The translations under genes were made by a program, and so were the position numbers. Below, piece by piece: positions 2,841-39,112 of a stretch of 53,037 nt of DNA. Numbering within the stretch: position 1 is the first letter of the stretch; each line of letters begins with the position of its first letter. Source of the DNA: a virus; UHGV virus genome UHGV-0150124, one strand, 5' to 3'. The notes under the pieces are model-generated. The model was not told where the DNA came from. It searched no databases and saw nothing but the letters and a program-made list of their open reading frames with translations.

Positions 2841-5800
2841 TGCTGTCGTTGATGTTATAAATGATCCGGTGCCTCTTGCTACTATCATTGTTGGAGAATA
2901 CAACGCGGTACAATATGCGTATCCTTCAGATGATGATGTTTGAGGACAATATATTTTCCCGATAATATCTGATGCTTTTAAACCAGAAAAAGCGCATTGC
3001 ACTGTTAATGTGCATCCACCATAAGGCACGTAATATGAAATTGTTTTGTTTTTATCTCCGCAACTAAACGTTACGTTATAAGTGGATCTATATTCACCAG
3101 ACATTAATGAAATAGTCGCCATAAGCATAACTGATTTCGTCAATGCATTATCCGTGCTGTCTTTATATGTGATGGTTGCGCTATAACTTCCGTTATGCCC
3201 AAGTACTCGATCTGGACCAACCCCCATGTTAGCAACGTCACCGATAAATGACTTTGCCTCTACTGTACCTTTAAACTTCCCGCTTGTGGCCTGAATCTCA
3301 CCAGTGAATTTACCAGATGTTGCGTACACCGTACCGCGTACAGTGACGTTGTTGAACTCCGCATTGCCGTTTTTATTTAGCATCCAGCCAGCCGAACCAG
3401 CTTTATAGTTGGTTGACTGAATTTGCTGCGCAATCTTCGCGGTAGTGATTGATGCGTCTCTGATCCACGCATCACGGATGTAGCAAGCACCGTTAGTAAC
3501 ATAGAACGGGGTCTGATAGGAGCCACCTGCCGCAGTCATAAGCACGAAACGGTCAACGAGGAAAATACACTGCGATTGAACGTTAGTCCCGCTACCAGTA
3601 AGGCCGAGCGACATTCCTGTAGCGTATTTCATACCGTTTTTATCAGTGGCAATCTTAATTGAATATGACGCATCAACGTTACCTTTGAAGTCAGTCAGTG
3701 CTTTTGATGTCGTTTCTATCGCCGTTGTGTTTCCGTTAATAGTTACTTTCAACTGGTCGATTCTGGTTGACAATGCCTCGTCTGCCGTTGCCATAGCCTG
3801 TGACCATTCCGTGATGCTTGAGTTTACATCGTCGAAAGATGCCGAGATCTGGCCAAATTTTTCCGCGCTTGATGTTTCATGCGTAGAAAGTGCAGTTGAC
3901 ACTTCGGATACTTTCGAATTAATCGTACTGGTAAGCGATGAGTTAAGGCTGCTGATTGCGTCAGTGCGTGCATTCTTCTCATCTGCGATCGCTTTATCCA
4001 TCCTGGTTACGTTGCTTGTCACCTTGCTATCGAGCGTGGAAATTGACGCATTAACCCCGCTAATAGCTTCTGCGCGTGCGCTTGATTCATCGGCGATAGC
4101 CTGATCCAGGCGCTTAACACTGGCGTCAGTTTTGCTTTCAAGGGTACTGATATTGGCGTTAACGTTGCTAATGGCTTCAGCGCGTGCGCTTGATTCATCG
4201 GCTATCGCTGTATCTACCCTTGCTATTTCCGCTTTTGTTTTTGTTTGCCCTTTCCTGTATTTCGCCTCAATAATAGTGCTCATCTTGCTTTGTGCCATTG
4301 AGTTATTAATAAGAGCAAGTGAGGCGTTTTGCAGACTTGCTTTCGCCTGATCTATCTCGTCGCTGTTTTTATCAACCTCACTTTTAACGCCGTCAAGCGA
4401 CGCGCTGATACCTGATATCGCCTGAGCACGTGCGCTTGATTCATCGGCGATAGCCTGATCCAGGCGCTTAACACTGGCATTTGTGTTATTTTCAAGCGTT
4501 GTTAAATCAGCTTTAACCACTGTTATTGCGTCGCTTCTTGCCTGCGTTTCATCTGATATTGCTTTATCAAGGCGGGAAACGCTGGCGTCAGTTTTCTTGT
4601 CAAGCGTTGAGATACTTGCGTTCACGTCGCTGATAGCCTGAGTACGCGCACTTGTTTCGTCTGCAATTGCCCGGTCAAGACGGTTTACGCTGGCGTCAGT
4701 TTTCTTGTCAAGATTGCTTATTGAAGCGTTCACGCCGTTAATGGCTTCAGCGCGTGCGCTGGCCTCGTCAGCCACTGCGCGTTCCACACTGGAGATCTGA
4801 CCTTTAAGGTTAGAATCCATCGTGTTCATTTCTGCCGTGATGGTTTCCAGTGATTCCGCTGTCGCTTTTTTCTCTTCAGCGATAACGTTGTCAATACGGT
4901 CAATTTCAGCCTTCGTCTCTGTCCTACCTTTCTTGTACTGAGCGGTAAGAGTTACGCGAGTGTTAGTCTGTGCAAGCGAGTTATTGATAAGCGCCAATGA
5001 CGCGTTTTGCAGGCTTGCTTTTGCTTGCGCCAGTTCGCTGCCAACTTTTTCGCTGGATACTTCAAGGGAGTCTATTCTTGACTCATGCTGCCCAATATCA
5101 TCGGCGTTTTCCTTAACTTTTTTATAAAGATCTTCCGTTTCTTTTTTAAGTGTATCCGTGTCAGCTTTTATCGATCCTGTTTCTGTGATTAGGTTGTCAG
5201 TTTCAGTCCTTAAATCGTCAGTTATTTCGGTCAGATTGTCAGTTGCAGTTTTAAGGTCATTCGTAGCGCTTTCGATAAGATCAGTGCGGTCGCCTAGATC
5301 TTTAATGTCATCAACCATTTCTTTAAACTGTTTTGAATTCATCACGTCTTTGGTGACGTAATCGGTGATTTCATCAAAGTTTTCTGTTGGCTTACCTGAT
5401 GCTTCAACGAAATCTGACACGCCGAAAGCGTTACGTGTGCGCACATAAACGTAATATGTGTGACCTGTATTCATGCCGCCAAACGTCCACTGATGACCAC
5501 GACCTGTATATTGTGCTTTAGTGGTTACTGATGCCGGGTCGGTGATCTGTGTTTCACCTGAGTAATAAAACTCATAACTGGTATCAGTGGTGAGCGTTGT
5601 TCTGCTGATCGGGTAAACGGTAGCCTGGAATACACCAGGAACCCAATTAACGCCGACGGGGGCCGCTGGTGCACCAATAACCAGATCCACAATACTTTCC
5701 GCGCCCTTCATGCCAGTATCATTACGCCCGCGAATACCTAATGAATAGATTCCTGAGTCAATGCCATAAAAATCATAACTGTAATTCGTAGTTTCGTAGC

Positions 5801-11858: not shown

Positions 11859-12113
11859 ATGAAACTGGTAGCGATTGACAGAAATCTGAAAGCACAGAAA
11901 AACGCACAGGACCGGATCATCAAGAAAGGTAAGGAATTACTTAAAGCCTTTCTGAGAAAAGAAGTTTACCCCAAAAAGTTACGCGACGGTTACGGATACA
12001 AAATGGATATCAATCTTGATTGGAGGCTGTTTAGCGAAGATTTGAAGGTTTGGTTAATTGTTGAGCACCATGCCTATAACAAGTTATGTGGCGTGAAAGG
12101 CACTCATAAGTGA
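11859..12113 (+). CDS. Hypothetical basic protein (84 aa), mini-cassette A
   Basis: ATG at 11859 after GGGGTGAG; followed by terminator. Confidence 0.4.
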   Translation: MKLVAIDRNLKAQKNAQDRIIKKGKELLKAFLRKEVYPKKLRDGYGYKMDINLDWRLFSEDLKVWLIVEHHAYNKLCGVKGTHK

Positions 12114-12174
12114 GTCGAGATATTCGAAAGGGGATATATCGCGCGGAATGGTCGTTTATAAATACGAAAAATAA

Positions 12175-12205
12175 CCCCGGCATTGCACCGGGGTTTAGTT
12201 TATTT
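12175..12205 (+). terminator. Intrinsic terminator after mini-cassette A
   Basis: Hairpin CCCCGG-CATTGCA-CCGGGG followed by TTTAGTTTATTT. Confidence 0.5.
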
Positions 12206-14545
12206 GCGGCGAGGTTGCAACATTCCGCCTGGTCTTTGAGATTCCCTTGTTATCATTTTCATGGCTACACGTTCCATTGTTAATTCAAGTCTGCGGCTGT
12301 CTTCGTCGCTGAATCCGTTCGTGGTCTGAATGCTGATACTGACAGGCATACTAATACCGCCACCGCCGCCAATATCACGGCCCGGAATAACTCTGCCGTT
12401 CTCGCCAGGGATCATATATTGATTGCCGTTAGATGTCTGGAATAGCTCCGGCCTGTTGTGTTCCCCTACGCGGTACATATTACCACCAATGACGCTACCA
12501 CCATTAAAGCGACCGCCGCCGAAAATTGACGTAGCCAGCGACATGATCGCAGTGAGCGCCGCCGAACCAGCCGCCGCCCAGCTACCGCCAGTTGACGCCG
12601 CAGTTGCCGCCGCTGCTGGGGCCGCCGCCGCAGCAATGCTTCCCTGAGCTGCTACCGCGCTTGCTGTTGTACTTGTTTGCGTGGCCTTGCTTTGTGTCTC
12701 CATCATGATCTGATCTGCTATCCAGTTTGCAGCTATGTCTGAGAGTCTGTTACCGATATTGCCGAGTATATTGCTTCCTAAGTTAGCAAAAACATCACTC
12801 AATGATTGAGTGCCGTTTAACAGGCCAACAAGCGCATTACTCATTCCGCCTTTAAGGCCATTAACACAATCACCGATAAGGCCGTTTGTGTCGCTTTGCG
12901 CCTGCCATTGTTCCCATTTCAGATCGCGGATCTGTTGCTCATAGGCTAACAATTCCTGTTTCTGTTGCGCTTCAGTAGCGCCCAGGTCTATAAGCATTTG
13001 CTTACGGATGGCCCATTCATTTTGCGCCTGCTGGATGGGGTCAACTTCGCCTTTTAGCTGATCCATCGGGCTTACTATTTGTGACCATTTATCACGCAAT
13101 TCATCTACCGGAATTTGTGCTAATTCTTCTTTCAGTTCCTTACCGATCCCTTTTTGCGCGGCGCGGTACTCAAGGAGTGTGATTTTACCCTGGGCGAATG
13201 CAGCATCAATGGCCTTTCCGTTCTCTAATGCTTTGCGCATAGCTGCGGCGTCTTTATTGTACTGGTCAGAAACGCTTATGCCCTTGTCACCAAGCGTATC
13301 CTCTTTGCTTTTCTTGCTGCCAGTTTTCTTACCCTTTTTAGGTTTATCAACTGGTTTATCGAATCCGGTAATGGCTCCGTCTTTTGGTGCTGTTAACGCC
13401 TCTTTCGCTTCTTCGCCTTTTTTCCTGACCGCATCAAGATCACTCTTAAGCGTCATAACCTGGCCTACGACCGGGCCGAACATTTTTGTCGGATTGCTGT
13501 TTAGTTCTTCCTTGCGCTCGTCTACAATTTCCTTCATCCACTTATATGCATCCATCAGCGCCTTGATTGGCGTCACCATTGCAATGATCTTCTCTGCTAC
13601 CTCGCCAGCCTTCACAGCCACATCATCAAACATGTCGATGAATTCGCCACCAGCCGTTTTGAGTGTATCGAAGCAGGTTTTAGCGAATTTAGCGCCCTCG
13701 CCAAGCCCTTTAACGCCCTTCGTGATTAAGTCGATAGCTGAAACAACGCCATCTGATACGCCGAAAAGATCATCAAGCTGCTCAACAAGGCCCATGATTT
13801 CGACTTTAAGCTCATTCAGGGCCGTGCCGGATGTGCGCGGCAACTGCGCAAACTTCTCGTTTGTTTCCTGCGTAGCCGCCTGGATTGCGTTAACCATCCT
13901 TTCTGCCGTGATCTTACCGTCCAGCATTTCGGCGCGGAACTGGCCCATTGATAATCCCATATGGCGGGCCATTGTTTGTACGATGGTCGGGGTGTTTTCA
14001 AGTAGGCTGTTAAATTCTTCAGCACGCAGCACGCCGCCGTCTATAGACTGGCGGAACTGGCGCATAGAGTTTGACATTTGCTCTGCTGACGCACCGCCTA
14101 ACGCCCCCATTTTCTGAATAGTGCCGACAAGGTTAAGTAATTGACCTTCGGTAGCTGACGTGTTCTTCAGTGAGATAGCCAGGCCTTGCCATAGTTCGCC
14201 AGTATCCTTCAGGCTCTGACCCGTCTCCCTGGATATTGCTTTCAGGCCGTCAAAAACCCGTCCGGCGGACTCTGCATCGCCCGTAAGCATTTTGATTTTT
14301 ACGCGAAGCATTTTTGCTTGCTCCGCCATATCCATAAATTGGCGCACAGCCTCGGCAGCAATTAGCAAATGGATAACCCTGGTCAGTGCCTTGATGGATG
14401 TTTTCAGGGTGTTTACCTGGCGGTCAGCCTGTTTTGCGCCGCGCTCTATACGATCAAAGGCCTGGTCTGCCTGTCGTTGTGCAACGAGAAGTTGACCAGT
14501 TTTCGCATCAACTTCGTAATAAATTGTACCTACACTGGTAGCCAT
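12200..14545 (-). CDS. Tail tape measure protein
   Basis: 781 aa, long helical/coiled-coil body, Gly/Ala-rich C-terminal region; sits between tail chaperone and tail tip genes. Confidence 0.85.
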   Translation of the reverse strand: MATSVGTIYYEVDAKTGQLLVAQRQADQAFDRIERGAKQADRQVNTLKTSIKALTRVIHLLIAAEAVRQFMDMAEQAKMLRVKIKMLTGDAESAGRVFDGLKAISRETGQSLKDTGELWQGLAISLKNTSATEGQLLNLVGTIQKMGALGGASAEQMSNSMRQFRQSIDGGVLRAEEFNSLLENTPTIVQTMARHMGLSMGQFRAEMLDGKITAERMVNAIQAATQETNEKFAQLPRTSGTALNELKVEIMGLVEQLDDLFGVSDGVVSAIDLITKGVKGLGEGAKFAKTCFDTLKTAGGEFIDMFDDVAVKAGEVAEKIIAMVTPIKALMDAYKWMKEIVDERKEELNSNPTKMFGPVVGQVMTLKSDLDAVRKKGEEAKEALTAPKDGAITGFDKPVDKPKKGKKTGSKKSKEDTLGDKGISVSDQYNKDAAAMRKALENGKAIDAAFAQGKITLLEYRAAQKGIGKELKEELAQIPVDELRDKWSQIVSPMDQLKGEVDPIQQAQNEWAIRKQMLIDLGATEAQQKQELLAYEQQIRDLKWEQWQAQSDTNGLIGDCVNGLKGGMSNALVGLLNGTQSLSDVFANLGSNILGNIGNRLSDIAANWIADQIMMETQSKATQTSTTASAVAAQGSIAAAAAPAAAATAASTGGSWAAAGSAALTAIMSLATSIFGGGRFNGGSVIGGNMYRVGEHNRPELFQTSNGNQYMIPGENGRVIPGRDIGGGGGISMPVSISIQTTNGFSDEDSRRLELTMERVAMKMITRESQRPGGMLQPRRK

Positions 14546-19864: not shown

Positions 19865-21148
19865 TTAGAAATAAGTGTTAAAGTCTGGTACTTCGCCTTT
19901 TTTACCTTCGCTTGCTGCGTTGGTTGCCATCGGCGTTGCGTTGCCCAGGGATTTAAACATTGCTTCTAACGCTTCCCCATTTAATGCGTTAGCAACAATT
20001 TCGCCGTGCACTTTTGCTACTGCGGCGCGTTTTTCTGCTACTTCTTTATTTGCGTTTGCTGCGATCTCTTCTTTAATCGCTTTCTGGTTGATCTGTAATT
20101 CTTCAACGCTTGCCTGTACTGGTTTAAGTGCTTCAGCGATTGCATTAGCCATATTTGCAGTGATGCTTTCGTTAATTTCTTTTACCAGTTCGGCGCGTTC
20201 TTCTTTGGTCAAAGGCATGGGATCGTCCTCCGATTTATTGGCCTTAATTTTTTCATTCAGGGAGAAAAGATTAGACAGGTGTTCAGCGAACTGAGCGAAC
20301 CATGATTTACTTTCCTCATTGGTTGCAAGTTCGCCATTATTGAGAATAATTTTATCAGCCTGTTTTTCATATGCGCAAACTTGAGCACTTTCGGTATTAG
20401 TGGCAATCGTCACTTCTTTATCAGTGAAGTCCACAACATACACGTAATCGGCATCAGGAAATAATTCACGCGCCGCGTCGGTTAATTGTTTCTCAAGCGT
20501 ACGGTAACTGTTTTCTTTCATTGCCACCGCCATTAACGGTTTCGCCTGGTCAGTATTAACCATCAACCCTACACCCTGTTCAGGTGATGCGGCTGGCGGC
20601 TCATGCAGCAAAATAGCGTCATGGTCGATCGACATAATTTTTACTACATGGTCAGCGCCCTGGGCTTTCATCTCTTCAGTAGCTGGCATACGCTGACGAT
20701 ATACAGCGACGGACGACCAGATAGGATCTTTGCTTTCTCCTTTCTCCAGTGCTTCCAGTCGGGTTAATAATTCGCGCCCCTGTTCTGAATGGCTGGCTGT
20801 TTCAATATCCACCCATTTTTCCACATAAACACGATTGCCGCGTAATTCAACGTTTCTGTTCCACGCTCCACAAAACCCGGTGTTCAATCCTTCCGGGCTA
20901 AATGCGGAAACAAATTTACCGTCAACGGTAGGATGGCCTAACGGTGCAAGCGTCCCCTCCAGTGACTGGTAATTAGCGATAATTTCAGCTTCTGGGTAAT
21001 ACTCACGATTCATAACGATATTGAATGGCAGCGTATATGATGGCACAACAATGTGCTCGCGTCCGTTATAAGTTTCCCGGCGTATGGTATTAGCGGTTAA
21101 TTTGGTATTAACCTGAATTAATTCTTTACTCACGGTTTTTACTCCCAA
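19865..21148 (-). CDS. Putative scaffolding / prohead maturation protein
   Basis: 427 aa; C-terminal half Ala/Glu/Lys-rich and coiled-coil-like; position upstream of capsid. Confidence 0.4.
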   Translation of the reverse strand: MGVKTVSKELIQVNTKLTANTIRRETYNGREHIVVPSYTLPFNIVMNREYYPEAEIIANYQSLEGTLAPLGHPTVDGKFVSAFSPEGLNTGFCGAWNRNVELRGNRVYVEKWVDIETASHSEQGRELLTRLEALEKGESKDPIWSSVAVYRQRMPATEEMKAQGADHVVKIMSIDHDAILLHEPPAASPEQGVGLMVNTDQAKPLMAVAMKENSYRTLEKQLTDAARELFPDADYVYVVDFTDKEVTIATNTESAQVCAYEKQADKIILNNGELATNEESKSWFAQFAEHLSNLFSLNEKIKANKSEDDPMPLTKEERAELVKEINESITANMANAIAEALKPVQASVEELQINQKAIKEEIAANANKEVAEKRAAVAKVHGEIVANALNGEALEAMFKSLGNATPMATNAASEGKKGEVPDFNTYF

Positions 21149-22089
21149 TCTTCGCCATATTTAGCGTGCGCAACTTTATAGTTTTCTTGCGCCCGATCTA
21201 ATATTCTTTCGTTTAATATGTTACCGTCTTCGTCAACTAATACGGTAATCGTGCTACATTTGCAGTTAATTGAATTAGGGGATCTACTCCACCATTCGCG
21301 CTGCTCATCTATGGTGTATGTTTTCCCGTGCCGCTGCGCGTGCGATAGCCTGGTAGTCGGTGACAATGCCGAAATGTGCATTTGCATAGTGCGCAGATTA
21401 AATTCTTCTGTCGCCGCTTCTGCCTCATCCATACGCGCTGTGCGTAACGCTGTGCATATTTCAGTTCGAGCAATACGTTTGCATCTGTATAGCGGTAATT
21501 GCGTCTCCTGATTCAATGTGCGCGCTATTTCCAGTGGGTTTAAACCACGGGCCATGCCTTCAGTTAGTCGGCGGGCCATATCCTTTTTGATCTGTGCTGT
21601 CAGCCCGCGCATTTCCTCAAATACACGGGTACGGACCAGGGCAAGGCGCGTGCGGTAGGTTGTGCTTGATAGTACGGCAGATACATCGGGATAAACGCTT
21701 GAGTACGTGACAGACTGGTTAGCAAGGTTGGCGTATTCCTGTGCCGTGCCTCGCTGATACGCGACCTTCACGTATTCCTGCCAGAACCAAAAACTTTCCG
21801 GGTCGGTTAGCTCGAATATCTCATCAATCATGTCGCTGGCGTCCTCCAGCATGTCATGTAATTCATCCATGTAAATCTGGAAGGTGTATTTCTTATTAAC
21901 AGCCAGGCTATATTGGATTCTGTCCAGTATGGCGATATATGGATCGGCTACTTTTTTCAGGCAGGATTTGAAACGCTTAACAGCACCAGAACGTAACTTC
22001 CCTGTCATGGTCGGATCTTCGGTGTTAGATGGCATTATCGCGGCTGGAGGTATTCGCCTGATTATTTTCTTCACCTTCATCATCGTCAT
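21139..22089 (-). CDS. Head morphogenesis protein (Mu F / SPP1 gp7-like minor head protein)
   Basis: 316-aa ORF directly downstream of portal; conserved IARTE...HG segment typical of this family (by eye). Confidence 0.55.
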   Translation of the reverse strand: MTMMKVKKIIRRIPPAAIMPSNTEDPTMTGKLRSGAVKRFKSCLKKVADPYIAILDRIQYSLAVNKKYTFQIYMDELHDMLEDASDMIDEIFELTDPESFWFWQEYVKVAYQRGTAQEYANLANQSVTYSSVYPDVSAVLSSTTYRTRLALVRTRVFEEMRGLTAQIKKDMARRLTEGMARGLNPLEIARTLNQETQLPLYRCKRIARTEICTALRTARMDEAEAATEEFNLRTMQMHISALSPTTRLSHAQRHGKTYTIDEQREWWSRSPNSINCKCSTITVLVDEDGNILNERILDRAQENYKVAHAKYGEDWE

Positions 22090-26091: not shown

Positions 26092-26166
26092 TCAGCTTTC
26101 AATGAGTATCATGATCGCCAGCCATACAGCGACGCAGACAGAAAGGATAATTAGCGGGTCAATCAT
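26092..26166 (-). CDS. Tiny hydrophobic peptide 24 aa (MIDPLIILSVCVAVWLAIMILIES)
   Basis: Hand-translated; GGGGTG upstream. Confidence 0.3.
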   Translation of the reverse strand: MIDPLIILSVCVAVWLAIMILIES

Positions 26167-26171
26167 ATTTT

Positions 26172-26276
26172 TCACCCCACCAAATACTTGATATATACGT
26201 TTATCAGCGCAACTATAATAGAACCCACAAGAAACACAGAAACGCCGATTAATCCGGCGATGATGTAAGCATCCAT
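26172..26276 (-). CDS. Tiny hydrophobic peptide 34 aa (MDAYIIAGLIGVSVFLVGSIIVALINVYIKYLVG)
   Basis: Hand-translated; weak RBS. Confidence 0.3.
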   Translation of the reverse strand: MDAYIIAGLIGVSVFLVGSIIVALINVYIKYLVG

Positions 26277-26282
26277 AATATC

Positions 26283-26349
26283 AATGTCCGTATATCAAGA
26301 TCACAGCGGCAGCTATGCCAACAAATACGCCTAACAGAAAAGTAAACAT
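26283..26349 (-). CDS. Tiny hydrophobic peptide 22 aa (MFTFLLGVFVGIAAAVILIYGH)
   Basis: Hand-translated; GAGGG 6 nt upstream, 2 nt after stop of preceding gene. Confidence 0.3.
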
Positions 26350-28154: not shown

Positions 28155-28355
28155 TTACTTATTCCCCATTCGCGCGTCGTGTTCCTCTTGCGCTCGCTTG
28201 TTCTCCTGTGATTTGAAGTAATAGTTAACGGCAAATGTGCCTATGGTTGATAAGATACCCACAAAGACAGCAATATCATTAATGGTTATCGCGCCGAAAA
28301 AAGCAGTTACGGCCCCGGTCACATACGCGCACGCCTCCCGTATTCTGTCGAACAT
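28155..28355 (-). CDS. Holin (class II / pinholin-like)
   Basis: 66 aa, two hydrophobic segments, charged C-terminus [19 protein letters not shown]; stop overlaps SAR endolysin start. Confidence 0.65.
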
Positions 28356-28370
28356 AGATTTTCCTCCAAC

Positions 28371-28397
28371 AAAGCAAAAACCCGGCTCGTGGCCGGG
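28371..28397 (-). terminator. tR'-like intrinsic terminator just upstream of the holin RBS
   Basis: On minus strand: hairpin CCCGGC-CACGA-GCCGGG followed by TTTTTGCTTTG, then GGAGGA and the holin ATG. Confidence 0.55.
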
Positions 28398-28460
28398 TAA
28401 TTACAATTTCGCATTGTTAGGAAATATTTTAATCTATTTGTTTTTTATGCGCGATTATGG

Positions 28461-30539: not shown

Positions 30540-30770
30540 CTATGCAGTTGTGTAGCTGTCTACCAGCTTTTCATCCTTCATTCTGGCAAGCTGTGCGATG
30601 TTCATCGTGTAGCCGCCATCAGAGAAAAACCACTCCGCAGCCTTGCGACGAAAAACAATATCATCATGGTTGTGCGTCCATGTAGCGATAACCACTCGCT
30701 TTCCGTCAGTGGCAAACATTGTTAATTCATTATCAACTACGTCGATAGCCTGCCAGATTTTTATCTCCAT
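30540..30770 (-). CDS. Hypothetical protein
   Basis: 76-aa ORF. Confidence 0.4.
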   Translation of the reverse strand: MEIKIWQAIDVVDNELTMFATDGKRVVIATWTHNHDDIVFRRKAAEWFFSDGGYTMNIAQLARMKDEKLVDSYTTA

Positions 30771-31126
30771 GATTTACCCCCGTAAATTTTGAATAATTCA
30801 CGTGCTTCCTTGTCTTCAAAGAGATTCATATGCAGGTTATGCAGACGGCGCATTGTGCGGAAACGCGGTCGGAATTCCTGGCTGTTTTTAATAAACTTAC
30901 CGCCAATTGAATAAATATGACCGTATGAATACCATCTATTACCCACCCAAATTAGATATTCTTCACCCTCATAATTAAATCTTATTGTAAGCCCGTCAAC
31001 CTCCATTATTAATCCTTTATCGAGGATGTCGTTTAACATCGAATCCCATTCTTTGAGGAATGGTTGTTGATAAAAACCAAAAAGCGTATTTGCAGCATGG
31101 CAAAGATAATCAATTATTATTTGCAT
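30761..31126 (-). CDS. Hypothetical protein
   Basis: 121-aa ORF. Confidence 0.4.
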   Translation of the reverse strand: MQIIIDYLCHAANTLFGFYQQPFLKEWDSMLNDILDKGLIMEVDGLTIRFNYEGEEYLIWVGNRWYSYGHIYSIGGKFIKNSQEFRPRFRTMRRLHNLHMNLFEDKEARELFKIYGGKSWR

Positions 31127-31130
31127 ATTA

Positions 31131-31337
31131 TCACCACATCATATAGTAAACGTTATCATTGGCTATCTCGTCAGCCTCATCCTGGCAATCGAAAGGCACC
31201 AATTTATCTGGATCGTGAAAGTCAAAAGCGAGAAACCTTGCTATCCTACGCCTCATTCTTTTGTTGTGCTCAAGATCATCAAAAGCCTTTAATGCTTTGT
31301 CGTATGCCCTTACAAGGCGCTTACGGTTACTTTTCAT
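31131..31337 (-). CDS. Hypothetical small basic protein, tandem paralog 1
   Basis: 68 aa MKSNRKRLVRAYDKAL...DNVYYMMW; paralog of the adjacent gene. Confidence 0.45.
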   Translation of the reverse strand: MKSNRKRLVRAYDKALKAFDDLEHNKRMRRRIARFLAFDFHDPDKLVPFDCQDEADEIANDNVYYMMW

Positions 31338-31341
31338 ATTG

Positions 31342-31542
31342 TCACCACATCATATAGTAAACGTTATCATCTGCTAATTCGTCTGCGTCTCTTTGGCAGT
31401 CGATTGTCGCATCATCTTCGTGCCATTCTTTAGCAAATAAACGCGCCCATTTACGACGCTCACGTTTATTGTGCCGCAGGTCACTAAAAACCATTAAAGC
31501 CTTGTCGTAAGCTCTTACCAAGCGTTTCATTCTACTTTTCAT
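31342..31542 (-). CDS. Hypothetical small basic protein, tandem paralog 2
   Basis: 66 aa MKSRMKRLVRAYDKAL...DNVYYMMW; shares 5' DNA block with paralog 1. Confidence 0.45.
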   Translation of the reverse strand: MKSRMKRLVRAYDKALMVFSDLRHNKRERRKWARLFAKEWHEDDATIDCQRDADELADDNVYYMMW

Positions 31543-31748
31543 TTTTCACCATTCCTTAATTCCTTAATTTCAATATTGCGTAACCGGACGTCGCACGGCG
31601 TTTCAGATTTACCAGTAAGCGCCAGCGTCAGGTTTTCAGGTGTCGTGTAAAGAGTTATCTCTTTACCAGTGCTAAATTTAATTTCTATGCGGATCTCGTT
31701 TTCATCACCGCACAATACGCGGCTAATTGACAGGCCAGCTTTTTTCAT
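31539..31748 (-). CDS. Hypothetical protein
   Basis: 69-aa ORF. Confidence 0.4.
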   Translation of the reverse strand: MKKAGLSISRVLCGDENEIRIEIKFSTGKEITLYTTPENLTLALTGKSETPCDVRLRNIEIKELRNGEK

Positions 31749-31761
31749 TGCTCAACAAACC

Positions 31762-32061
31762 TTAAAATCTGTATTGCCAGTAAATATCACACTTTATTGC
31801 GAATACCTTCACCGGATCAGGGCCGAATAGTGGATGTTGAATCAACTTGATTTCGTACCCCATGTAAGGCAATACGATAATCCGGTCTTTCTCATCATCC
31901 GATGGATAACCCCATTTAATGATTAATCTTGTGTACTCCCGCCCCTCCAGGCGTTTACGCCAGTATTCATTGTAAAGCCGGTATTCTTCCACCTTCTTTC
32001 CCGCCCGGATGGCGTGGAAGTATTCACCTTTTAAATTCAAATGTAAGTGTTTATTTGCCAT
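31762..32061 (-). CDS. Putative ASCH/PUA-like domain protein
   Basis: 99 aa; N-terminus LHLNLKGEYFHAIRAGKKVEEYR resembles ASCH domain openings (by eye). Confidence 0.4.
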   Translation of the reverse strand: MANKHLHLNLKGEYFHAIRAGKKVEEYRLYNEYWRKRLEGREYTRLIIKWGYPSDDEKDRIIVLPYMGYEIKLIQHPLFGPDPVKVFAIKCDIYWQYRF

Positions 32062-32320
32062 CGCTATGATCCTGTAAACAGTCGTTATAGCCTTCGATGT
32101 ATCCGGTTAATCCTGTGTTACTTACTGACCAATCAGCCGAACGGCGCTTGATGGCCTTGTCCATAGTCATCTCGTCACCTGGCCCGCCTGGCTCGATGTA
32201 TTTTCTTAAATCCCTTGCTATCCACGTCCCTAATTGTTGCGTATCACTGCACACACGCGCCGTTAATGTCAGATTATTAACCAGCTTTGCGAATAGATGT
32301 TCTTTTAATTTAGGCTTCAT
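32051..32320 (-). CDS. Hypothetical protein
   Basis: 89-aa ORF. Confidence 0.4.
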   Translation of the reverse strand: MKPKLKEHLFAKLVNNLTLTARVCSDTQQLGTWIARDLRKYIEPGGPGDEMTMDKAIKRRSADWSVSNTGLTGYIEGYNDCLQDHSDGK

Positions 32321-32510
32321 CCTTCACCTCGCGACGATAGATTTCTACTGGCTTAACCGGAATAGCGTTAAAATCCCCTTCATCCAGTGCGGCAATAAAC
32401 GTTAGCGCCAACCGTGCTTCAACACCGCTTAAATACTTGCACCATGCCTCACCGTTATAATCTTCAAAAAGAATAACCGCTTTTTTCATGTTTATCTCTT
32501 GTTGTTTCAT
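32310..32510 (-). CDS. Hypothetical protein
   Basis: 66-aa ORF starting at the Q stop codon. Confidence 0.4.
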   Translation of the reverse strand: MKQQEINMKKAVILFEDYNGEAWCKYLSGVEARLALTFIAALDEGDFNAIPVKPVEIYRREVKDEA

Positions 32511-33232
32511 TATTCACCCCGTGTCACTCGTTTAATTTCGTTATCAGCCCGCGCCTCTTCTTTGAACAATTCAGTAATGGCGTCTTCATAGAAAGCACGG
32601 TATTTCTTCCACCACGTTGATCGGCTTACCGGAAATACAAGCTGATTAACCGCACGCCGGACAAGATCTACAGGGAAACGCGAGTACCCGCGCCCGCCGC
32701 AATGCTGGCACGTTTTGAACACTGGCATTTCCGCTGCTTCACTGGCTGCTTTATCCGGTATCTCGCCGCGCCCTTTGCATCGTTTACAATGATTACGAAC
32801 TTTTCCATGCCCCTTGCATTTTTTGCAAAGGTGTTTTTCTCCGTAGTCGTCAAACGTAAATTTATATCCGCCGCAATCCATACAAGTTTTTTCTGTCGCG
32901 GCACTCTGGCAGTAATCCCGAAACGCGAAAACGGCAACAAGAATAATAAGATCATTGCGTTTGTCCTCGTCCAGCTCTATGACGTATTCGTAATCTTTTG
33001 CCATAGCTCTTAAACGCTCTGTAAGCAAAACTACGGCCCTGTGTTTTTCGGCTTGCGATAGTTCCATCTTTCCCAAAAAAGCGCTATAGCCAAGCTCTAC
33101 GCGCGATTGCGCCATACCCGCAGCGGTTAGCGCATCCGTCGTATTAAGAGCGTCCGGGGACGTGCCCCGGCTTTCGTCAGATAATCGCGGTGATTTAGGA
33201 AAGTGGAATTTTAGAATGGATTCTAAATTCAT
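32510..33232 (-). CDS. Q: Late-gene antiterminator Q (lambda type)
   Basis: 240 aa; N-terminus MNLESILKFHFPKSP vs lambda Q MRLESVAKFHSPKSP; Cys-rich zinc-binding segment CMDCGG...CKRCKGRGE...CQHCGGRGYSRF. Confidence 0.85.
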   Translation of the reverse strand: MNLESILKFHFPKSPRLSDESRGTSPDALNTTDALTAAGMAQSRVELGYSAFLGKMELSQAEKHRAVVLLTERLRAMAKDYEYVIELDEDKRNDLIILVAVFAFRDYCQSAATEKTCMDCGGYKFTFDDYGEKHLCKKCKGHGKVRNHCKRCKGRGEIPDKAASEAAEMPVFKTCQHCGGRGYSRFPVDLVRRAVNQLVFPVSRSTWWKKYRAFYEDAITELFKEEARADNEIKRVTRGE

Positions 33233-38779: not shown

Positions 38780-39112
38780 TTATAGTGGGTGATGCCATTT
38801 CATTTCAGTTTCTGAATTAAACGGGTTTCCTTCGCTTGAAAGGAATAAATCACGCTCCCGTTTCAGTTCTTCCGGGCTTATTTCTATTTCATCAATCTGA
38901 CCGAACGATCCCGGCATCATTCGTTTTAAATCAGATAGCGGACGCATAAGGCCGCAGCCGCGTAACAGCATATCGACCGCGAATTGTCTACGTCCGCCAG
39001 CGTCATTGAAGCGCCGCGCCCAGGGCACAACCACGATCCGGCGTTCGAATTCGATAAATAGTGATAGCTTGTTTGTTTCGCTATCATATGCTTTATGGAA
39101 TTTAATTTTCAT
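38780..39112 (-). CDS. Hypothetical protein
   Basis: 110-aa ORF. Confidence 0.4.
   Translation of the reverse strand: MKIKFHKAYDSETNKLSLFIEFERRIVVVPWARRFNDAGGRRQFAVDMLLRGCGLMRPLSDLKRMMPGSFGQIDEIEISPEELKRERDLFLSSEGNPFNSETEMKWHHPL

Follow-up and report, generated by a model that had tools for sequence, protein, structure and literature searches.

Two short open reading frames, designated A and B, lie side by side on the minus strand of the virus genome UHGV-0150124, which was analyzed over its whole length of 53,037 nucleotides and is referred to here as the window (Table 1). Both are also called as genes by RefSeq in the locally identical prophage of E. coli FAH, and the start of B overlaps the stop of the 69-aa gene upstream by 4 nt (ATGA). 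The first-pass annotation had taken the two for paralogs, and this is correct: 43 of 68 residues are identical (63%; BLASTP E value, 8e-29), and the similarity spans the whole gene body instead of being restricted to the shared ends. No other clear paralog pair emerged from an all-against-all BLASTP comparison of the window ORFs. A weak paralogy (29% identity over 65 aa; E value, 2e-6) connects the small ORFs at 30540..30770 (-) and 38780..39112 (-), which belong to different small-gene arrays. Short internal repeats at 3646-5127 produce spurious ORFs that match one another at up to 100% identity over 16 aa; the corresponding stretch of the related FAH prophage is annotated as a tail tip fiber gene.

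Table 1. Features at and around the gene pair, in window coordinates
Feature	Position	Strand	Description
Holin gene	28155..28355	minus	
Terminator-like hairpin	28398..28380	minus	GC-rich, then a T run; in the gap at 28356-28460, just upstream of the holin gene
121-aa gene, downstream	30761..31126	minus	PHROG 16975, function unknown; start 4 nt past the A stop; 81-84% identity to L015, L012, and L056, 90.7% to L018
Junction block 2	31124..31157	minus	Last 9 codons of A, TGA stop, spacer TAAT, ATG of the 121-aa gene
Copy A	31131..31337	minus	68 aa, PHROG 8758 member, slot 2; 96.6% identity to L056
Conserved 5' end of the A cassette	31317..31337	minus	ATGAAAAGTAACCGTAAGCGC; common to C-type and other alleles (alignment A4)
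Junction block 1	31335..31368	minus	Last 9 codons of B (DNVYYMMW + TGA stop), spacer CAAT, ATG of A
Copy B	31342..31542	minus	66 aa, PHROG 8758 member, slot 1, transcribed first
orf66 through B		minus	98-100% DNA identity to L015 (B only) and L012 (B+C)
69-aa gene, upstream	31539..31748	minus	PHROG 1222, function unknown
Q-like antiterminator gene	32510..33232	minus	

The window is the genome of a temperate siphovirus related to the Escherichia phages mEp010, mEp013, mEp044, and mEp554 and is a member of the mEpimmI group, a non-lambdoid, Nus-dependent group defined in 2025 in a paper that makes no mention of the gene family discussed here (PMC11893012). Its minus strand encodes a CI-like repressor, ERF, SSB, Dam, NinG, and RusA. 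From the Q-like gene to the holin gene, small ORFs follow one another closely over about 4 kb, and the pair is among them; the only sizeable gap in the stretch is the one that holds the terminator-like hairpin. Given this location of the hairpin, the small genes are probably read within the early operon, and the arrangement points to this gap as the likely site of the late promoter and terminator region. All neighbors of the pair fall into PHROG families of unknown function, save a weak ASCH-like protein, and in mEpimmI-type phages the 121-aa gene is the constant right-hand neighbor of the PHROG 8758 gene.

The nin region of phage lambda is a set of small, nonessential early genes. Like the array in the window, it consists of tightly packed and often overlapping small ORFs in an operon with NinG-like, RusA-like, and Q-like genes. 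The two differ in their position relative to the Q-like gene, which is followed by the array in the window but preceded by the nin region in lambda. In addition, the window array is without a Pfam match to lambda Nin. The phage itself belongs to a non-lambdoid group (PMC11893012).

The FAH prophage (NZ_CP116035.1) equals the window over 30700-32100, and the sequences differ below about 29400. The FAH holin gene is found at 26106-26306 (in locus coordinates that match those of the window around the pair), an offset from the window's holin gene which implies that the FAH array is about 2 kb longer in small genes. In the same FAH locus (L003), RefSeq labels 12080-12739 (+), within the tail-gene region, as "type VI secretion system-associated protein TagO" and 19899-21269 (-), which encodes 456 aa and adjoins the head genes, as "anti-CBASS protein Acb1 family."

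The PHROG 8758 family

Both proteins match the profile hidden Markov model (HMM) of PHROG 8758 (A, E value of 5.6e-19; B, 2.3e-24), covering positions 71 to 150 of 151; the family has no assigned function. It is small, comprising 32 clusters at 90% identity in a word-indexed search, and an exhaustive profile search of 1.84 billion representative proteins returned just 12, with no annotated distant relative among them. One of the 12, P0059 (2624 aa), was rejected as a low-complexity repeat artifact. The GTDB species representatives contained no family match, and HMM searches against PDB sequences likewise gave none. At gathering score, no Pfam family matched either member of the pair, the best being MRP-S25 at a chance-level E value of 0.087. 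The stretch ...NKRQRRKWAR... was considered as an arginine-rich N-type antiterminator peptide, and no Pfam match to such peptides emerged. None of the PADLOC-DB defense or toxin-antitoxin models matched A, B, or three neighboring genes at an E value of ≤0.1.

The family is also present, as a single copy, in virulent phages of the genera Sashavirus and Kagunavirus. Gp14 of the Salmonella phage Sasha is 64.6% identical to B and has in common with both A and B the motifs MKSxxKRxVRAYDKxL...RRxxAR...QxDADExAxDN(V/I)YY, while a Kagunavirus ORF annotated phrog_8758 belongs to the same PHROG as both copies. These members differ from the pair in their unrelated neighbors, in the separate ribosome-binding site (RBS) of the gene downstream, and in their C terminus, which reads ...YYLVN or similar versus ...YYMMW. 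A conserved pairing of the PHROG 8758 gene with the 121-aa gene was considered and rejected, given the unrelated neighbors in Sashavirus.

The 90% identity cluster of B also holds ASCH proteins of 99 to 100 aa that are named "RNA-binding protein." They are unrelated to B rather than longer relatives of it, and the name is not transferable; they were probably linked into the cluster via chimeras such as P0024. In other E. coli prophages, in-frame fusions between the family gene and a neighbor (window 31131-32320) have arisen at microhomologies of 2 to 5 residues: P0024 joins an ASCH N terminus to the family gene (joint, WRKRL), P0057 the N terminus of orf89 to the family gene (joint, AR|MLV), P0032 residues 1 to 33 of the family protein to the C terminus of orf76, and P0060 a C-type N terminus to the C terminus of orf121. 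These chimeras look like deletion scars of decaying prophages.

Divergence and copy number of A and B

The pair had been read as a recent tandem duplication that suggested selection for dosage or diversification. The two genes are indeed adjacent, in the same orientation, similar in length, and clearly paralogous, and their 34-nt ends are nearly identical. However, their divergence is that of old lineages. The pairwise comparison that had been proposed as a check leaves paralogy intact but finds synonymous sites saturated (Nei-Gojobori pS, 0.70; dS, about 2.0 to 2.1), with a dN of 0.32 and an omega of ~0.17, and pS between A and every other sampled type outside the A lineage lies in the same range (0.62 to 0.87). 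Whereas A and B are only ~70% identical at the DNA level, A is 96.6, 95.2, and 92.3% identical to the single-copy A-type alleles of loci L056, L057, and L055, and for B the corresponding values are 98.5% for the single-copy allele of L015 and 99.5% for the B gene of the B+C pair in L012. The homology search places both copies in PHROG 8758, and each is closer to an allele in another genome than to its neighbor. The two fall in different sub-lineages of a neighbor-joining tree, B beside the P0005/Sasha type and A beside the t70/71/72 type. Nor do the near-identical ends, which had been taken as a sign of recency, bear on the age of the pair, since the same block is equally conserved across all single-copy alleles. 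With these data, it is extremely improbable that the gene was recently duplicated in place and that the copies then diverged rapidly because dosage or diversification was selected for. Selection for dosage is in itself unlikely given an amino acid divergence of 37%; diversification is possible as a selective reason. A and B are thus old, diverged versions of one accessory gene, PHROG 8758.

Both lineages are under purifying selection (omega, 0.06 to 0.28 overall; 0.13 to 0.28 within the A lineage and 0.06 for B versus the L018 allele), on which basis both copies are probably functional. A represents a diverged allele type, in which the near-invariant W32 is replaced by I and EWH by DFH. The exact B protein is found on 380 contigs, and the exact A protein is preceded by B every time among the contigs listed.

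Examination of copy number in related phages and prophages, as had been suggested, shows one copy in most and pairs in a minority. The span of the match fits a single copy in 34 of 35 complete E. coli genomes with a hit, matches fall in one place in 12 of 12 phage records, and 36 of 43 IMG/VR loci are single-copy. B occurs alone in L015-L020. In L055-L058, the same position, immediately ahead of the 121-aa gene, is taken by a lone A-type gene that is 92 to 97% identical in DNA to A of the window. Further pairs with the same 4-nt spacer and junction are B+C, t71+C, t72+C, and P0007-type+C; a D+t70 pair has a 12-nt spacer. The C type was seen in slot 2 only. Two C variants compared with each other give an omega of 0.71, indicative of relaxed constraint, and the C copy of L011 is shortened to 30 aa.

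Junctions, mosaic borders, and the proposed assembly of the pair

The first-pass annotation had described a near-identical stretch of about 35 bp around each start. Two near-identical copies do exist, but they sit at the 3' ends of the paralogs and run on into the ATG of whichever gene follows. The window contains exactly two copies of the 34-nt block GATAACGTTTACTATATGATGTGGTGAYAATATG, which differ by one mismatch, against 0 expected from 100 shuffles, and these copies cover the starts of A and of the 121-aa gene. The start of B is preceded by a different sequence, AAGGAATGGTGAAAAATG. In single-copy phages, the family gene and the 121-aa gene are connected by the same block (...GATAACGTTTAYTATATGATGTGGTGAYAATATGCAAATAATC), which stands before ATGCAAATAATC. 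The junction tggtgaYaatATGAAAAGTAACCGTAAGCGC is also found in the B+C and t71+C pairs.

Within the block, GGTGA (part of TGG-TGA) lies 4 nt ahead of the next ATG, positioned as an RBS for A and for the 121-aa gene. The junctions that link the 69-aa gene, B, A, and the 121-aa gene (ATGA overlap, TGA-CAAT-ATG, and TGA-TAAT-ATG) are of the kind expected of translationally coupled genes, and TGG TGA would then double as the RBS. The 34-nt block may therefore be kept for two reasons, in that it encodes the conserved C-terminal tail and that its TGG TGA would supply the RBS of the next gene. The Sashavirus and Kagunavirus members, with an RBS of the downstream gene's own and ends of the ...YYLVN kind, fit the view that TGG-TGA has been retained in mEpimmI phages for the downstream RBS.

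An alternative would be that the block is conserved as a nucleic acid element in itself, for instance because it folds as RNA, binds a protein, or acts as a promoter in the antisense direction. Promoter-like motifs can be recognized in both copies, with TTTGCA/TTTTCA-16 nt-TATAGT on the plus strand (31120-31147 and 31331-31358), the weaker TTAGCA-17-TATGAT and TAGCCA-16-TATGAT on the minus strand, and alleles with TAT instead of TAC that turn the antisense -10 into TATAAT. Synonymous codon diversity in the tail is also somewhat low, at 0.17 over only 5 codons versus 0.29 in the rest of the gene (36 distinct alleles), and a small extra nucleotide-level constraint on the tail is possible on this figure. 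Ultraconservation of the tail at the nucleotide level was considered and not upheld, since it was not clearly distinct from the remainder of the gene, in which many other codons score 0. Against such an element, the region contains 12 promoter-like sites versus 14.7 ± 3.6 in shuffled sequence, i.e., no excess, the RNA fold z scores are unremarkable (0.24 for block 1 and -0.18 for block 2), and there is no Rfam match at the junction, with one chance-level hit elsewhere. Moreover, alleles do differ at synonymous positions within the block (TAC/TAT, AAC/AAT, and GAT/GAC), and its conservation is accounted for by the synonym-free codons of Met-Met-Trp together with stop, RBS, and start. We therefore regard an element of this kind as very improbable. 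The near identity of the 35 bp is better explained by the conserved C-terminal peptide, the stop, RBS, and start signals, and recombination at the block.

Comparison with related loci reveals sharp borders. The 69-aa gene upstream and the genes up to the Q-like gene lie within the block that is 98 to 100% identical to L015 and L012; from there on, identity changes abruptly from one gene to the next, as does the nearest relative (Table 1). The 121-aa gene is a separate mosaic module. In our alignment, the window tracks L012 through TGGTGACAATATGAAAAGTAACCGTAAGCGC and L056 thereafter, and the left crossover, where L012-like sequence turns L056-like, is probably located within the conserved 5' end of the A cassette. 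Codons 2 to 4 show zero synonymous diversity over 36 alleles. At the other end, single-copy A alleles terminate in ...YYMIW, whereas A of the window ends in ...YYMMW as B does, which points to a second crossover within or beyond the tail block. An abrupt change of nearest relative and short shared sequences at the joints thus coincide at this locus, as is characteristic of mosaic modules.

According to the modular theory of lambdoid phage evolution, gene modules are exchanged by recombination. The mosaic modules of temperate phages have the same sharp borders, gene-by-gene relatives, and short conserved joints, and ERF, NinG, and RusA are encoded here. In this case, two alternative alleles of one slot have ended up adjacent to each other, and neither has displaced the other. 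Temperate phages exchange such modules through relaxed homologous recombination by Rad52-like recombinases, which, an Erf included, are efficient on short, diverged sequences (PMC3945230).

We consider it likely that the pair came together when phages with different versions of the gene recombined, rather than by recent copying. From the junctions and the distribution of alleles, we infer the following order of events. The usual state would be a single version in one slot just upstream of the 121-aa gene, with the shared ends (5', about 21 to 29 nt; 3', about 34 nt) serving as joints for homologous or short-homology exchange. A first two-copy state may have arisen by unequal exchange between the gene-end GGTGA-YAAT-ATG and the GGTGA-AAA-ATG before the gene. 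An L012-like phage with B and a C-type second copy would have been the starting point for the present pair, in which the C cassette of slot 2 would have been swapped for an A-type allele from an L056-like phage. Plausibly, the ERF of the phage itself acted as the recombinase, a role suggested by the ERF, NinG, and RusA genes that it encodes. A single origin could account for the identical junctions of the different pairs, and so could several origins.

A different history would start from an ancestral pair, slot 1 plus slot 2. Single-copy phages would then have lost one gene through deletions at the direct repeats that mark the gene ends, and alleles would have been swapped per slot. The repeated loss of one copy via direct repeats would be expected to leave the same junctions: the 34-nt repeats and shared 5' ends ease precise deletion, and the predicted products match the single-copy junctions. 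The behavior of the C type agrees with this history as well, since it is confined to slot 2, behind four slot-1 types and always with the same 4-nt junction, which suits an older dedicated second paralog over free allele capture, and the truncated C copy of L011 would represent decay of slot 2. On the other hand, a single copy is by a large majority the prevailing state, also among the homologs in virulent phages. Furthermore, A and t70 are each found both as a sole copy and in slot 2 (t70 behind D), whereas t71, a close relative of t70, is in slot 1; slot position thus does not track phylogeny. On balance, we find an ancestral pair unlikely, and recombination between phages with different versions remains our preferred explanation. 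The feature is, in this respect, ordinary phage mosaicism in a small, uncharacterized family.

Protein layout, possible function, and significance

The two proteins share a layout of three regions: a basic, conserved N terminus (MKSNRKRLVRAYDKALKAFDDLRHNKRQRRKWAR), a variable middle, in which A and B differ most, and a conserved tail, D.LADDNVYYMMW. They had been described as small and basic. While their small size is evident, their overall pI of 7.9 (A) and 8.85 (B) and net charge of about +1 to +2 make them only marginally basic, and they are instead bipolar, with a charge of about +9 in residues 1 to 36 and about -8 in the remainder. AlphaFold2 predicts three helices in both (pLDDT of the best model, 90.5 for B and 84.6 for A, with lower values for the other models), the N-terminal half being basic and the C-terminal half acidic. 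Structure searches returned nothing informative. The conserved basic residues R10, K14, K26, R29, R30, and R34 are exposed at the surface.

Possibly, the conserved basic face of this predicted three-helix protein is a binding surface for nucleic acid or for an acidic host protein; the variable middle would then set specificity, and a phage with two versions could reach more targets. This is a tentative guess, prompted by the conserved surface basic residues and the acidic third helix in the models, and we would sooner doubt than assert it. More speculative still, the slot might be a cassette position for a small, fast-diversifying phage effector whose basic face would bind a host or nucleic acid target. 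Tandem alleles (B+A or X+C) would let the phage cope with more hosts or host factors, and the shared ends with their TGG-TGA RBS would form a plug-and-play joint. This idea is drawn by analogy with arrays of counter-defense genes, and it has, in our estimate, a small chance of being correct.

To specialists in phage genomics, nothing in the history proposed here will be surprising. Still, the locus provides a clean example of apparent tandem duplicates that are alternative alleles joined at short conserved gene ends, and it cautions that adjacency and identical ends do not prove recency. The PHROG 8758 family is very narrow, yet it is under purifying selection and common to temperate and virulent enterobacterial siphoviruses. 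Together, this selection and this sharing suggest that it probably has a real function, and screening the family by knockout or expression would cost little.
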